Shown: positions 97 to 59,170 of the stretch, one piece after another | Numbering within the stretch: position 1 is the first letter of the stretch | How the letters are laid out: each line of letters starts with the position of its first letter | DNA from: Escherichia coli | Lineage (GTDB): Bacteria; Pseudomonadota; Gammaproteobacteria; Enterobacterales; Enterobacteriaceae | Direction: 5' to 3' (one strand) | Assembly: GCF_003334315.1 (NCBI RefSeq) | Contig: NZ_QOWR01000013.1 | DNA length: 64,000 bases | The notes under the pieces: generated by a model | What the model was told of the DNA's origin: nothing | Seen by the model: only the letters and a program-made list of their open reading frames with translations | Database searches by the model: none | Made by a program: the position numbers and the translations under genes

Positions 97-249
97 CTAC
101 TTCTTCGATTCGTAAGCGAGAACTGCCTTAAACTCCATACCACGTTCTCTGATACTCAACTCACACAACGAGTCGCCTACCATCAGCGTGAATCCCAGTA
201 CTGTAAAACACAGCACTATGATTGCCACAAGGGCATATTTTGTCAGCAT
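97..249 (-). CDS. Hok/Gef-family type I membrane toxin, 50 aa (possibly the hokX-type locus next to cysH)
   Basis: Small minus-strand ORF below the track size cutoff: [50 protein letters not shown]. Hydrophobic N-terminal helix followed by the LCE..R...E.KAVLAYE tail typical of Hok/Gef toxins; GGGAGG Shine-Dalgarno about 7 nt upstream of the ATG. Confidence 0.6.
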
Positions 250-347
250 GTCTTGCCTCCCTGCAAAGAAGAGACTAACATTCGAATTGTTTGGGTTCGA
301 ACGTAAGCCTCAGGTTGATAGAAATATCGCCTGGGGCTTTTGTCCAT
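243..347 (-). CDS. mok-like leader ORF (34 aa) overlapping the start of the hok-like toxin
   Basis: [37 protein letters not shown] ends with TGA overlapping the toxin ATG (ACATGCTGA), the arrangement used for translational coupling in hok/mok loci. Inference from layout only. Confidence 0.35.
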
Positions 348-513
348 CTGGAACCTCGCGAATGCTTAACGCCAGACAGCCTCAAGCACCCGACGCCATT
401 CTATACCTGATAATTCTTCCAGCGGCGTTCACGTTTAAAATCAGGAATACTGCTCGCAAAATAAAAACGCCCCCATCATTTCTGACAGAGGCGTTTAATT
501 TATCCGGCAATAT

Positions 514-1322: not shown

Positions 1323-3035
1323 TTAATCCCACAAATCGCGCGCCGGATCGAGCACCGGGCGAATGATGCCCGCACGCACCGTAAAGTCGCCGAAGCCTTC
1401 ACCCGCTTCGCGCTCTTTCGCCCAGCGCCCTATCAGTTCATCAAGCGACGCCAGGATTTCCGGCTCGGTGATGTTTTCTTTATACATCCGAGGGATACGT
1501 GTCCCAATGCGGTTGCCGCCAAGATGCAGGTTGTAGCGACCCGGCGCTTTACCCACCAGGCCCACTTCCGCCAGCATCGCGCGACCACAACCGTTCGGGC
1601 AGCCTGTTACACGCATCACGATATGCTCATCGCTGACACCATGTTTCGCCATTAAATTATCGATGTTGTCGATAAAAGACGGCAGGAAACGCTCCGCTTC
1701 CGCCATCGCCAGCGGGCAAGTCGGGAATGACACGCAGGCCATTGAGTTTTCACGCTGCGGCGTGACGGCATTCATTAACCCGCTCTCTTTGGCGATCTTC
1801 TCGATCTTCGCTTTCTCGCTTTCCGGTACACCGGCGATGATCAGATTCTGGTTCGCCGTAATGCGGAAATCGCCTTTGTGGATCTTCGCGATCTCCAGCA
1901 GGCCGGTTTTCAGCGGACGCGCCGGATAATCAAGGATGCGACCATTTTCGATAAACAGCGTCAGGTGCCAGTTATCATCAATGCCCTTAACCCAGCCAAT
2001 ACGATCGCCTCGTCCGGTGAACTCATATGGACGGATCGGTTCAAATTTGATCCCCGCGCGACGCTCCACTTCCGCTTTAAACGTCTCAACCCCCACGCGC
2101 TCCAGCGTGTATTTGGTTTTGGCATTTTTACGATCGGTTCGGTTACCCCAGTCACGCTGAGTTGTCACGACGGCTTCGGCCACCGCCAGCGTATGCTCCA
2201 GCGGCAGATAGCCAAACTCACTCGCGGTGCGGGCGTAGGTTTTCTTGTTGCCGTGTTCGATGGAAAGCCCACCGCCCACCAACAGGTTAAAGCCCACCAG
2301 CTTGCCGTTTTCGGCGATCGCCACGAAGTTCATGTCGTTGGCGTGCAGATCGATATCGTTCTGTGGCGGGATCACTACCGTGGTTTTGAATTTACGCGGC
2401 AGGTAGGTCTGGCCGAGGATCGGTTCTTCATCAGTAGTGGCGACTTTTTCCTGGTCGAGCCAGATCTCCGCATACGCGCGGGTACGCGGCAGCAGATGCT
2501 CAGAAATCTTCTTCGCCCACTCGTACGCTTCCGCGTGTAGCTGCGACTCGTAAGGGTTCGAGGTGCAGAGTACGTTACGGTTCATGTCGTTAGCGGTCGC
2601 CAGCGCATCAAGACCAACCGAGTGCAGCATCTGGTGCACCGGTTTGACGTTCTTTTTCAGAATGCCGTGGAACTGAAACGTCTGGCGGTTGGTCAGGCGA
2701 ATGCTGCCATAGATGGTGTTTTCACCGGCAAATTTGTCTATCGCCTGCCACTGTTTAGTGGTAATCACCCCACCCGGCAGACGGCAGCGCAACAGCATCG
2801 CGTGGCGCGGCTCCAGCTTCTGTTCAGCACGTTCGGCGCGGATGTCGCGGTCATCCTGCTGATACATGCCATGGAAGCGGATCAGCAGGAAGTTGTCGCC
2901 CTTAAAGCCGCCGGTCAGACCGTCGTTTAAATCTTCCGCAATGGTGCCGCGCAGGTAGTTGCTTTCAAGCTTCATGCGCTCGGCGTCTGTCAGTTTTCCT
3001 TCGACCACTAAAGGCCCTGGATGTTTTTCGCTCAT
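1323..3035 (-). CDS. cysI: sulfite reductase hemoprotein beta subunit
   Basis: 570-aa ORF recognised as CysI; siroheme/4Fe-4S cysteine motifs near C-terminus; start overlaps cysJ stop. Confidence 0.96.
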
Positions 3036-4834
3036 TAGTAGACATCTCGCTGATAACGGCGCTCTACGCGCAGCTCACTTAAAAATTCATCCGCCGCTTC
3101 GGTGTCCATGCCACCAAATTCGGCAATCACTTCCAGAAGTGCCTGCTCAACGTCTTTCGCCATGCGATTAGCGTCACCGCAGACATAAATGTGGGCACCG
3201 TCATTGATCCAGCGCCACAGCTCCGCGCCCTGTTCGCGCAGTTTGTCTTGTACGTAAACTTTTTCTTTTTGGTCGCGCGACCAGGCGAGATCGATCCGCG
3301 TCAGCACACCCTCTTTGACGTAGCGCTGCCACTCCACCTGGTAGAGGAAATCTTCCGTAAAGTGCGGGTTGCCAAAGAACAGCCAGTTTTTTCCCGGCGC
3401 TTCATCGGCAGCACGTTGCTGCATAAAGGCGCGGAACGGCGCGATGCCGGTGCCTGGGCCAATCATAATCACCGGGGTTTCTGGATTGGCTGGCAGGCGG
3501 AAGTTATCGTTATGTTCGATAAATACGCGGACTTCGCCCTCTTCTTCCACGCGGTCAGCGAGGAAGCTGGAGGCACCACCGGCACGGGCGCGGCCTTCCA
3601 CGTCGTAACGCACCACACCAACGGTGACGTGTACTTCGTTCTCGACTTCCGCCTGCGAGGAGGCAATGGAATAGAGACGCGGCGTCAGCGGGCGCAGCAG
3701 ATTAATTAGCGCTTCGGCATCAAGCTGTGCCGGGGAGAAACGCACCATGTCAACAATCGGCGTCGTCGCGGCGTAATGCTGTAACTTCGCTTTATCGCCC
3801 ACCAGCGGCAGCAGTGTTTCACTGCGGGTAAGCGTGGCGTAATTCTCAACAATGTTGGCGGTGTTGACGGTCAGTTCGAAGTGCCACTGTAGCGCTTCGT
3901 TCAGAGGCAACGTTTTGCCCTCGACGGTGACAGGTTCATCGCCTTTCAGCCACAGCAGTTCGACAAGTTCTTTCACCAGTGCCGGATCGTTCTGATACCA
4001 GACGCCCAGCGCGTCACCCGGCTGGTAACGCAGGCCCGAGTCACCTAAGTCAATTTCGATATGGCGAACGTCTTTTTCAGAGTTACGCCCGGTAATTTTC
4101 TGGTTAACAGAGAGGCTAGCCACCAGCGGCGCGTCTTTGCTGTACGGGCTGGTGTGGATTTCATTTACCGCGCCAGTAGCGACGGATTGCGAAGGTGCCG
4201 CGACAGGCGCACGCGATTTAAGCGCATCAACCACGCGGGCGCGCCACTCGCTGGCAGCAGCCTGGTATTCAACATCGGCATCGACACGGTCGAGCAGGCG
4301 TTCACCACCCAGTTCCGCCAGCTTGCTGTCGAAATCTTTCCCGGACTGGCAGAAAAATTCATAAGAGCTATCGCCGAGGCTAAACACGGCAAACGCGGTG
4401 TTTTCCAGCTTTGGCGCTTTTTTGGAGAACAGGAACTTATGCAGCGCGACGGCTTCTTCCGGCGGTTCCCCTTCCCCTTGCGTTGACGTCACTACGATGA
4501 GCAGTTTTTCGCTGGCGACTTGTTTGAATTTATAGTCGCCCGCGTTCACCAGCTTAACGTTCAGTTTTGCTGCTAATAAATCATCACGTAATGCTTCAGC
4601 AACCCGGCGCGCATTGCCGGTTTGCGAGGCGGAGATAATAGTTATACCCGGCATTTCTGCGGCTGGCGCTGGCGTCGCTGCAAGCGCAGCAGGCTGCTGA
4701 TTGAGTACGCCCCAGAAATAGCCAGAAACCCAGGCAAGCTGGGTGGGAGTTAAATCGGTCGTGGCCGCCTGAAGGCGTGCCAGTTGCTCCGGGTTCAACG
4801 GAAGCAACGCGGAAGGTGGGACCTGTGTCGTCAT
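3035..4834 (-). CDS. cysJ: sulfite reductase flavoprotein alpha subunit
   Basis: 599-aa ORF recognised as CysJ (flavodoxin-like N-terminus, FAD/NADPH reductase C-terminus). Confidence 0.96.
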
Positions 4835-37271: not shown

Positions 37272-37631
37272 AATAAAAAAAGGGAGCACTGTATTCACAG
37301 CGCTCCCGGTTCGTTTCGCAGCATTCCAGCTACTTTTGTTGCTCCCTGCTCATCCTTGACAACTTTTCCTCTGGCCTTGCGGCCAATCGTTCATCCTGAA
37401 CTATTGCTTCCTGCTCACACCACCCCGATGTGATACTTCATCCTGAAGTGTCCCTGGCCTTCCTGACCCACCGAATCATCCTGACCGGTTCTCATTCTCC
37501 ATCCTGGAGGTGTCCTTTAACGCGTCCTGCGTCATCCTCTTCGCTTCATCCAGAAGCCTTTCCCTGAAACACCATCCTGGTGTGTCCTGCAGAAGTGTCA
37601 TCATCCTGATGTTCACTTCGTTGTCTGACTC
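37272..37631 (-). ncRNA. csrB: CsrB small RNA (CsrA-sequestering)
   Basis: Plus strand carries about 18 copies of CATCCTG, that is CAGGATG / AGGA CsrA-binding motifs on the minus strand; 3-prime end is a GGGAGCGCTGTGAATACAGTGCTCCC hairpin plus U-run; 5-prime end near GAGTCAGACAACGAAG (sequence recognised from memory). Confidence 0.92.
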
Positions 37632-44059: not shown

Positions 44060-44926
<867 letters not shown>

Positions 44927-54765: not shown

Positions 54766-55683
54766 TTATTGTTCATAACGAAAGCGGAATTTTTCTTGTT
54801 CAGCAGCGGCTTTCGCCAGGATCCATTGGCGAAAGGCGGCTATTTTACCCAGTTCTGCCTGGCTGTCATGACAAACCAGATAAAAAGCGTTTTTACTGAC
54901 CAGAACATCATTAAACGGGCAAACAAGACGTCCGGCCTCGATTTCAGATTGCGCCATCACGTTATTTGCCAGCGCCACTCCCTGCCCGTGAATAGCCGCT
55001 TGCAGCACCATGGCGCTATGACTAAAAATTGGCCCTTGCTGAACGTTGATATGATTTAACCCCAACTGTCGGGTATATGTCTGCCAGTCACGGCGTGACG
55101 CATCATGTAATAACGTATGTTTAGCCAGATCTTCCGGGGTCTTCAAGGGTTTTTCGCCTGTCAGCAGTAGCGGCGAACACACCGGCAATAAATATTCGGC
55201 GTACAGTTTTTCCACCCGTAGCCCCGGCCAGTTGCCCCGACCATAAAATATCGCCACATCAACATCATCCGCCAGCTTATCTTCCTGACGGTCAACCGCC
55301 TGGATTCGAACGTCAATTCCCGGATAAGCTGAATTAAAGCTGGAAAGTCGCGGAACCAACCAATGAATGGCGAAACTGGGGAGTAAACTGACCGTCAACG
55401 CCCCCTTGGCGCTACGGGCCTGGAGTTTACGCGTCGCTTCGGTTAATTGCGAAAATATCTCTTTGATATCGAGGAAATAGCTTTGACCTTCCTCGGTCAG
55501 CAGGAGTGAACGATTACGGCGGCGGAACAGTTTTAGCCCCAGAAAATCCTCAAGAGACTTGATTTGATGACTTACTGCGGCCTGGGTCACAAAAAGCTCT
55601 TCTGCTGCGCGAGTGAAACTTAAATGGCGTGCTGCGGCATCAAAAACTCGTAAGGCATTTAGCGGTGGTAATCGTTTAGACAT
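54766..55683 (-). CDS. gcvA: LysR-family glycine cleavage regulator
   Basis: 305-aa ORF recognised as GcvA. Confidence 0.96.
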   Translation of the reverse strand: MSKRLPPLNALRVFDAAARHLSFTRAAEELFVTQAAVSHQIKSLEDFLGLKLFRRRNRSLLLTEEGQSYFLDIKEIFSQLTEATRKLQARSAKGALTVSLLPSFAIHWLVPRLSSFNSAYPGIDVRIQAVDRQEDKLADDVDVAIFYGRGNWPGLRVEKLYAEYLLPVCSPLLLTGEKPLKTPEDLAKHTLLHDASRRDWQTYTRQLGLNHINVQQGPIFSHSAMVLQAAIHGQGVALANNVMAQSEIEAGRLVCPFNDVLVSKNAFYLVCHDSQAELGKIAAFRQWILAKAAAEQEKFRFRYEQ

Positions 55684-55811
55684 GGCTTTTAAACTTTGAT
55701 GTTAAATGAATTTAACAATTAGATCACACTATGTAACCTATTAGTTTTTTTAATCTGAGCCATTATAAATTGTCCGTTGAGCTTCTACCAGCAAATACCT
55801 ATAGTGGCGGC

Positions 55812-56017
55812 ACTTCCTGAGCCGGAACGAAAAGTTTTATCGGAATGCGTGTTCTGGTGAACTTTTGGCTTACGGTTGTGATGTTGTGTTGTTGTGTTTG
55901 CAATTGGTCTGCGATTCAGACCATGGTAGCAAAGCTACCTTTTTTCACTTCCTGTACATTTACCCTGTCTGTCCATAGTGATTAATGTAGCACCGCCTAA
56001 TTGCGGTGCTTTTTTTT
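55812..56017 (+). ncRNA. gcvB: GcvB small RNA
   Basis: ACTTCCTGAGCCGGAACG... with the GU-rich GTTGTGATGTTGTGTTGTTGTGTTTG region and a GCACCGCCTAATTGCGGTGC hairpin plus T-run at the 3-prime end; divergent from gcvA (sequence recognised from memory). Confidence 0.92.
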
Positions 56018-56033
56018 ACCTTGCGATCGTGAA

Positions 56034-56261
56034 TTACTGATCCAGTTCGACCATCTCTTTCACGTCAGTACGGTTGATCTGCTGTTTGTTGCCATTAGCG
56101 TCTTTATACGAAATCATACCGGTATCGTTATCAGTCTGTGGTTTGCCGTCAGAGACGATGGTACGTCCGTCATTGGTGTGCATCACATAGTTCGAACCGG
56201 AACAGGCGCTCAGGGCAAAAGTCAGCATACAGGCAGAAATAATTGCGGCAGTCTTTTTCAT
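56034..56261 (-). CDS. ygdI: DUF903 lipoprotein
   Basis: Track ORF 56034..56264; start placed at [20 protein letters not shown] (lipobox). Confidence 0.88.
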
Positions 56262-56452
56262 CATCTTCTCCTTAAAGCGATTAATAAATCTTAATAGTAT
56301 TGATTAACAGGCTAAAATTAACGCCTAACACTATTCAGCATATGTTACTTACGCGGCTTCGCCAGGATATCCAGATAATTCTGATGGTTAGCACTCTCCT
56401 TGTATCAAAGTGAATTTTGCGTCACGATCGGTGCATCAAGCCGAGGAGTACC

Positions 56453-58986: not shown

Positions 58987-59170
58987 TATCCCTCACCCTA
59001 AACGCATAAATGCCTGATGCGCTACGCTTATCAGGCCTACATAACTCCTGCAATATTTTGGATTTGCATGATTTGTAGGCCGGATAAGGCGTTCACGCCG
59101 CATCCGGCATGAACAACGCGCACTTAGTCAATAATCAGGATGTGAGGTTACCCCTCACCCTGTCATATCC
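58987..59170. repeat. BIME / REP cluster flanked by short GAGGTTA(T/C)CCCTCACCC hairpin repeats
   Basis: Two inverted REP units (GCCTGATGCGCTACGCTTATCAGGCCTAC ... GTAGGCCGGATAAGGCG...GCATCCGGC) bracketed by near-identical 17-21-nt hairpin motifs at about 58987-59007 and 59147-59170. Confidence 0.6.

Follow-up and report, generated by a model that had tools for sequence, protein, structure and literature searches.

The gcvB small RNA gene divergent from gcvA in a 64-kb stretch of the Escherichia coli chromosome

Positions 55812-56017 on the plus strand of the window, that is, of the whole 64,000-nucleotide stretch of Escherichia coli DNA analyzed in this study, are almost certainly the chromosomal gcvB gene of a non-K-12 E. 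coli, encoding the trans-acting, Hfq-dependent small RNA GcvB. In a scan of the entire window against all 4227 Rfam families, the GcvB family RF00022 was matched at 55812-56017 (+) with E = 1.1e-46 and 199 bits, where the gathering score is 42, the match covering positions 1-204 of the 204-position model without truncation. An earlier note on this DNA had proposed a 206-nt RNA gene of the GcvB family here and had named a covariance-model search as the way to check it; the search returned a strong end-to-end match and placed the gene at exactly the proposed ends. The identification is further borne out by comparison with the experimentally characterised gcvB gene of E. coli K-12 MG1655 (b4443), to which the segment is identical in 206 of 206 bases. 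The curated K-12 record places b4443 between gcvA and ygdI, with coordinates 2942696-2942901, and describes it as an ncRNA, 'small regulatory RNA GcvB'. All testable defining features of the GcvB family were found at this locus. The gene is thus already known and already fully described, its sequence here being that of the reference gene itself.

The locus and its control region comprise the following features.

55812-56017, plus strand: gcvB, the full-length 206-nt GcvB small RNA (RF00022; 206/206 identity to b4443).
54766-55683, minus strand: gcvA, a 305-aa ORF encoding the divergent LysR-type transcription factor (NCBIfam NF008352).
56034-56264, minus strand: ygdI, convergent with gcvB, encoding the YgdI lipoprotein by NCBIfam.
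55777-55805, plus strand: promoter-like site of gcvB from a consensus scan, with the -35 box TTGAGC (55777-55782), a 17-nt spacer, and the -10 box TATAGT (55800-55805).
55740-55775, strand not assigned: conserved block upstream of the -35 box, a candidate GcvA operator, from the alignment of spacers of 36 Enterobacterales.

The RNA gene lies between two minus-strand ORFs, 54766-55683 and 56034-56264. The product of the first is identified as GcvA by NF008352 with 512.8 bits against a cut-off of 288, and the 128-bp spacer separates it from gcvB, with gcvA upstream and divergent, as the earlier note had it. The same arrangement recurs elsewhere: all 57 homologous loci of other Enterobacterales with sufficient upstream flank for the gcvA check have gcvA next to the RNA in divergent orientation, 102-297 bp from its 5' end. 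Further neighbours were assigned by NCBIfam as YgdD, RlmM, and CsdA. The next plus-strand gene after gcvB is csdA, which begins about 400 bp past the strong terminator.

In an ORF-only view this segment scores as empty intergenic space, a point made in the earlier note and upheld by the PGAP-annotated RefSeq records, which list nothing beneath the gcvB match. For 12 of 12 such E. coli records, sampled across the ranking list, the feature at the gcvB match is given as 'None', and a search for an ncRNA in the feature table of NZ_CP032992.1 found none listed. Among the records checked, only the curated K-12 record annotates gcvB as an ncRNA. Standard PGAP annotation thus leaves gcvB unmarked in thousands of E. 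coli genomes. Work on gcvB goes back to 2000, and the present copy contributes no new biology; it is useful in practice as a positive control for a sequence-only scan, in which both ends of a 206-nt RNA gene were placed exactly.

Several other RNA matches were observed in the window. A full-length CsrB small RNA, also a known regulatory RNA that is intergenic to an ORF-only view, lies at 37272-37631 on the minus strand (RF00018, 380 bits, E = 1e-110). A match to the sok antitoxin / CssrC family at 234-391 (-) (RF01794, 113 bits) hints that the left edge of the window carries a chromosomal hok/sok-type toxin-antitoxin locus, and a match to ES036 / CssrF was found at 59033-59075 (-) (RF02751, 46.5 bits against a gathering score of 37.6). 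Between mltA and amiC, a single initiator-type tRNA-Met(CAT) was found by ARAGORN at 60503-60579 (+), with one Rfam tRNA match, whereas K-12 MG1655 has three tandem tRNA copies at this site, metZ, metW, and metV. Either the copy number may truly vary, or the repeat may have been collapsed during assembly.

The control region was analyzed in an alignment of the gcvA-gcvB spacers from 36 Enterobacterales genomes, in which runs of columns with at least 90% conservation were considered conserved. The spacer is strongly conserved from about -72 to +1, and its gcvA-proximal half is not conserved. The start point of gcvB is the A at 55812, 6 nt after the -10 box, and the -10 box with its flank, AAATACCTATAGT (55793-55805), is at least 90% conserved in the 36 spacers. 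Upstream of the -35 box, the conserved runs are ATTAGTTTTT (55740-55749), CATTATAA (55761-55768), and TTGTCC (55770-55775). The GcvA consensus presumably contains CTAAT, which reads ATTAG on the other strand. The upstream block 55740-55775 holds both ATTAG and a LysR-type T-N11-A box, extending from T55741 to A55753, with the dyad TTA-N7-TAA in this strain. A GcvA operator immediately before the -35 box would fit the sequence of this block, and putative GcvA sites have been placed within -90 to +1 (PMC1557403).

The RNA itself is divided as follows (RNA positions are counted from 55812).

55818-55872, plus strand: stem-loop 1, RNA nt 7-61, from the MFE and centroid folds and the Rfam structure line.
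55874-55900, plus strand: R1, the G/U-rich single-stranded seed, RNA nt 63-89, from the sequence.
55905-55923, plus strand: stem-loop 2, RNA nt 94-112, from the fold and the Rfam structure line.
55925-55945, plus strand: internal Rho-independent terminator t1, RNA nt 114-134, a terminator-like site composed of stem-loop 3 (55925-55939, by the fold) and six T (55940-55945).
55946-55961, plus strand: R2, CACUUCCUGUACAUUU, RNA nt 135-150, by exact match.
55956-55988, plus strand: stem-loop 4, containing R3, RNA nt 145-177, from the Rfam structure line.
About 55963-55974, plus strand: the R3 seed, CCCUGUCUGUCC, inside stem-loop 4.
55989-56017, plus strand: terminator t2, RNA nt 178-206, a terminator-like hairpin with a T-run.

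The segment folds far better than expected from its composition, with a minimum free energy of -62.1 kcal/mol against a mean of -47.1 for 200 dinucleotide-preserving shuffles (z = -3.6), none of the 200 being as stable. R1, GGUUGUGAUGUUGUGUUGUUGUGUUUG, is a 27-nt linker between stem-loops 1 and 2, and 26 of its 27 bases are G or U, so that the GU-rich seed region claimed in the earlier note is located at RNA nt 63-89. The MFE fold weakly pairs a few bases of R1, and the centroid leaves nt 71-93 unpaired. The terminal hairpin and T-run, also seen in the earlier note, are resolved as a hairpin at 55989-56010 with eight pairs, six of them G-C, followed by eight T that end at 56017. A Rho-independent terminator with a long U tail, as present in gcvB, fits the usual Hfq-binding 3' module. 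The numbering register used here is confirmed by the point mutations published for R3, G156, G160, and C162 (PMC9299463), since these positions fall on G, G, and C, respectively.

Two hairpins with T-runs in series superficially resemble an attenuator, and the segment could be read as a cis-acting leader or attenuator, or as a UTR of a neighbouring gene, instead of an independent trans-acting RNA. However, no co-oriented gene follows: ygdI, which comes next, runs in the opposite direction, and csdA lies past a strong terminator, with its start about 400 bp away. Moreover, the element has its own conserved promoter and matches a family of trans-acting small RNAs from end to end. The leader reading was rejected on gene orientation, and we regard it as extremely improbable.

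A different question is which end of GcvB predominates, and this concerns a refinement of the trans-acting RNA and not a true rival to it. Most transcripts might stop at t1 (about 55945). The 206-nt species would then be minor, and the abundant product, an RNA of about 130 nt, would carry R1 but neither R2 and R3 nor the stem-loop 4 site for SroC. The terminator-like hairpin with six T at 55925-55945 speaks for this, as does the portion of PMC1557403 dealing with the lacZ fusions of Urbanowski et al. 2000, according to which t1 stops about 90% of gcvB transcripts in E. coli and t2 the other 10%. On the other hand, later work treats the species of about 200 nt as the functional, Hfq-bound form (PMC9299463, PMC4474525), and selection on the 3' half is evident from nt 133-170 and the t2 stem, which do not vary across Enterobacterales. 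A predominance of the short product is possible but doubtful. Production of RNAs of about 130 and 206 nt from two terminators, with a functional t1, has been described (PMC1557403), and the internal terminator after stem-loop 3 may likewise give a short isoform of GcvB here in addition to the full-length RNA.

Every one of the 5426 complete E. coli genomes searched carries the RNA, 5390 of them with at least 99% identity, and a 701-bp segment spanning gcvB was likewise found in all 5426, in many with 100% identity. The search yielded 5430 matching places, of which one is on a plasmid-classed record, and a few genomes have two places. In the bovine isolate E. coli OkiPb01677 (NZ_AP042483.1), gcvB is split after RNA nt 125, in the 3' arm of stem-loop 3, by an IS4-like element of the ISVsa5 family; in the coordinates of this locus, the interrupted gene spans 2501-4060 and the transposase CDS 2733-3941. 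The insertion has the appearance of a natural disruption of gcvB that retains R1 and leaves the primary transcript without R2, R3, and the terminator.

For comparison beyond E. coli, homologues were retrieved with a 16-nt R2 probe, which lies outside R1, from one genome per species (GTDB; 298 Gb), and nhmmer with the whole RNA was used to separate true homologues from chance matches of the probe. All true homologues belong to Enterobacterales. About 45 unrelated contigs that match the probe (from Bacteroidota, Clostridia, archaea, and others), approximately the number expected by chance for a 16-mer in 298 Gb, were rejected by nhmmer and left out of the alignment. The remaining set of 64 non-redundant full-length homologues, aligned by MAFFT, extends from Escherichia albertii to Serratia, Yersinia, Hafnia, Pectobacterium, Edwardsiella, Morganella, Proteus, Providencia, Photorhabdus, and Xenorhabdus.

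The conservation of R1, the second check proposed in the earlier note, holds throughout this set: its core (UGUG.UUGUGAUGUUGUGUUUGCAA) is essentially invariant in the 64 homologues, which were retrieved by a probe outside it. Nucleotides 133-170 and the t2 stem are also essentially invariant. Within this region, R3 (nt 151-162), which is outside the probe, is invariant in 64 of 64 homologues, whereas conservation of R2, being the probe, is given by construction and was not counted. The t2 stem GCACCG/CGGUGC never changes while its loop is variable; since the stems of t2 and stem-loop 4 do not vary, they are uninformative for compensatory changes. The segment that joins stem-loop 1 to the R1 core has 7-8 extra nucleotides in Enterobacteriaceae.

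Compensatory changes were found in the remaining stems. An apical pair of stem-loop 1 (alignment columns 36-46) is changed on both sides in 24 sequences, its states being AU (33 sequences), UA (13), GU (6), CG (5), UG (4), and GC (2). RNAalifold applied to the MAFFT alignment found stem-loop 1, stem-loop 4, and the terminator, but not stem-loops 2 and 3, because MAFFT had misaligned the arms of these two in Enterobacteriaceae relative to the remaining families. When the segment from R1 to R2 was folded in each sequence separately, stem-loops 2 and 3 formed two hairpins in 64 of 64 homologues, with several complementary arm pairs: GGUCUG/CAGACC, UGUCUGG/CCAGACA, GUCCGG/CCGGAC, and GUCUGC/GCAGAU in stem-loop 2, and GGUAGC/GCUACC, AGUAGC/GCUACU, and GGCGGC/GCUGCC in stem-loop 3. 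Invariant single-stranded segments combined with covarying stems are the pattern expected of a base-pairing regulatory RNA.

The same homologues bear on the possibility that the segment encodes a protein, listed here as one more feature.

55845-55985, plus strand: 46-aa ORF with an ATG start, MRVLVNFWLTVVMLCCCVCNWSAIQTMVAKLPFFTSCTFTLSVHSD, from the ORF list.

According to this reading, 55812-56017 would specify a small hydrophobic protein, with the RNA serving as its mRNA or having a dual function. The ORF is real and starts with ATG. Escherichia and Citrobacter have it intact, and most Enterobacteriaceae retain its N-terminal half, the latter because the RNA sequence of R1 is constrained. Its C-terminal half, however, is frame-shifted in many Enterobacteriaceae (...FHFLYIYPVCP against ...FTSCTFTLSVHSD), the frame being changed by single-base indels after stem-loop 3 although the nucleotide sequence there is invariant. 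The ATG is absent from all homologues outside Enterobacteriaceae, among them those of Serratia, Yersinia, Photorhabdus, Proteus, Morganella, and Edwardsiella, while R1, R2, and R3 are invariant in these genomes. In addition, the start codon is in the apical loop of stem-loop 1 and has no Shine-Dalgarno sequence. With the ATG lost outside the family and the frame switched within it, the coding reading was rejected and is very unlikely to be correct. It is just as improbable that GcvB might be dual-function in a narrower circle, Escherichia, Citrobacter, and close relatives, by also producing from 55845-55985 the predicted 46-aa peptide, which would be hydrophobic and rich in cysteine. The ORF itself is a side effect of constraint on the RNA sequence.

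The pairing potential of R1, the seed of the GcvB RNA that serves most targets, was computed for known target mRNAs with sequences taken from K-12 and 500 dinucleotide-preserving shuffles of each target as controls. The strongest duplex is formed with the gltI 5' UTR (-75 to -43) at -34.9 kcal/mol, a value reached by none of the 500 shuffled targets. The duplexes with dppA (-44 to -11; -26.2 kcal/mol) and oppA (-10 to +15; -23.1 kcal/mol) are situated at or near the ribosome-binding site and are equalled or exceeded by 25 and 33 of the 500 shuffles, respectively. The background energy of R1 duplexes at the 51 long-ORF starts in the window has a mean of -18.7 and a standard deviation of 4.0. 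The oppA and dppA duplexes are thus modestly better than shuffles and about 1-2 standard deviations from the background, and duplex energy alone does not single them out. Local targets of R1 were sought at the same 51 starts, where the best values are within about 2 standard deviations of the background. The strongest of these duplexes, in the range from -25.3 to -26.4 kcal/mol, are at 44282 (+) with -26.4, at 13524 (+) with -26.0, and at 19713 (+) and 4834 (-); they are probably not significant.

The mechanism established in K-12 and Salmonella likely applies to this copy, because the RNA is identical to that of K-12 and the promoter region is identical or nearly so. Expression, Hfq binding, and GcvA binding in this strain are accordingly expected by transfer from these organisms on the 100% identity of the RNA. 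GcvB has been characterized as a non-coding small RNA of about 200 nt, divergent from gcvA, regulated by GcvA and GcvR, and induced at high glycine (PMC9299463). By analogy, GcvA, modulated by GcvR and glycine, would activate gcvB from the shared control region when glycine is abundant. The RNA has three seeds, of which the G/U-rich R1 serves most targets (PMC9299463); it is Hfq-dependent, binds C/A-rich sites in 5' UTRs, and represses translation initiation (PMC4474525). Together with Hfq, R1 would thus pair with C/A-rich elements in or upstream of ribosome-binding sites and block the initiation of translation of many mRNAs for transporters of amino acids and peptides and for biosynthetic enzymes, likely including oppA, dppA, gltI, and others. 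R2, which has a role in the repression of cycA (PMC9299463), and R3 would act on fewer mRNAs, among them cycA, lrp, phoP, and gdhA. Finally, the sponge RNA SroC, derived from the 3' region of gltI, has its pairing sites in stem-loops 1 and 4, and its binding causes GcvB to be degraded by RNase E (PMC9299463), and the same turnover may be predicted for this copy. Nothing in the analysis contradicts the explanation of the segment as GcvB.

Among known systems, the closest is gcvB of K-12 MG1655 (NC_000913.3, 2942696-2942901), which has the same 206 nt, the same length, the same strand relative to gcvA, and the same flanks, gcvA and ygdI-csdA. There are no differences inside the RNA, against 20 substitutions over the 5-kb region compared. 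Two intergenic differences from K-12 flank the gene, one at 55688, by the gcvA start, and the other at 56030, in the gap that separates the gcvB terminator from the end of ygdI. GcvB of Salmonella enterica differs from that of E. coli by 10 nt and shares both its function and its architecture (stem-loop 1, R1, stem-loops 2-3, R2, stem-loop 4 with R3, and the terminator; PMC9299463). In Yersinia pestis, GcvB occurs as two RNAs of about 130 and 206 nt; the gene is also divergent from gcvA, has two terminators, and has conserved R1 and R2, and the Yersinia homologues in our alignment share the divergence from gcvA, the two terminators, and the conserved R1 and R2. In Yersinia and the other genomes outside Enterobacteriaceae, however, stem-loop 1 is joined to the R1 core by a link 7-8 nt shorter than that of E. 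coli, and stem-loops 1-3 have other arm sequences, and the t1 hairpin of Yersinia is spaced 2 bp further from its T-run (PMC1557403).
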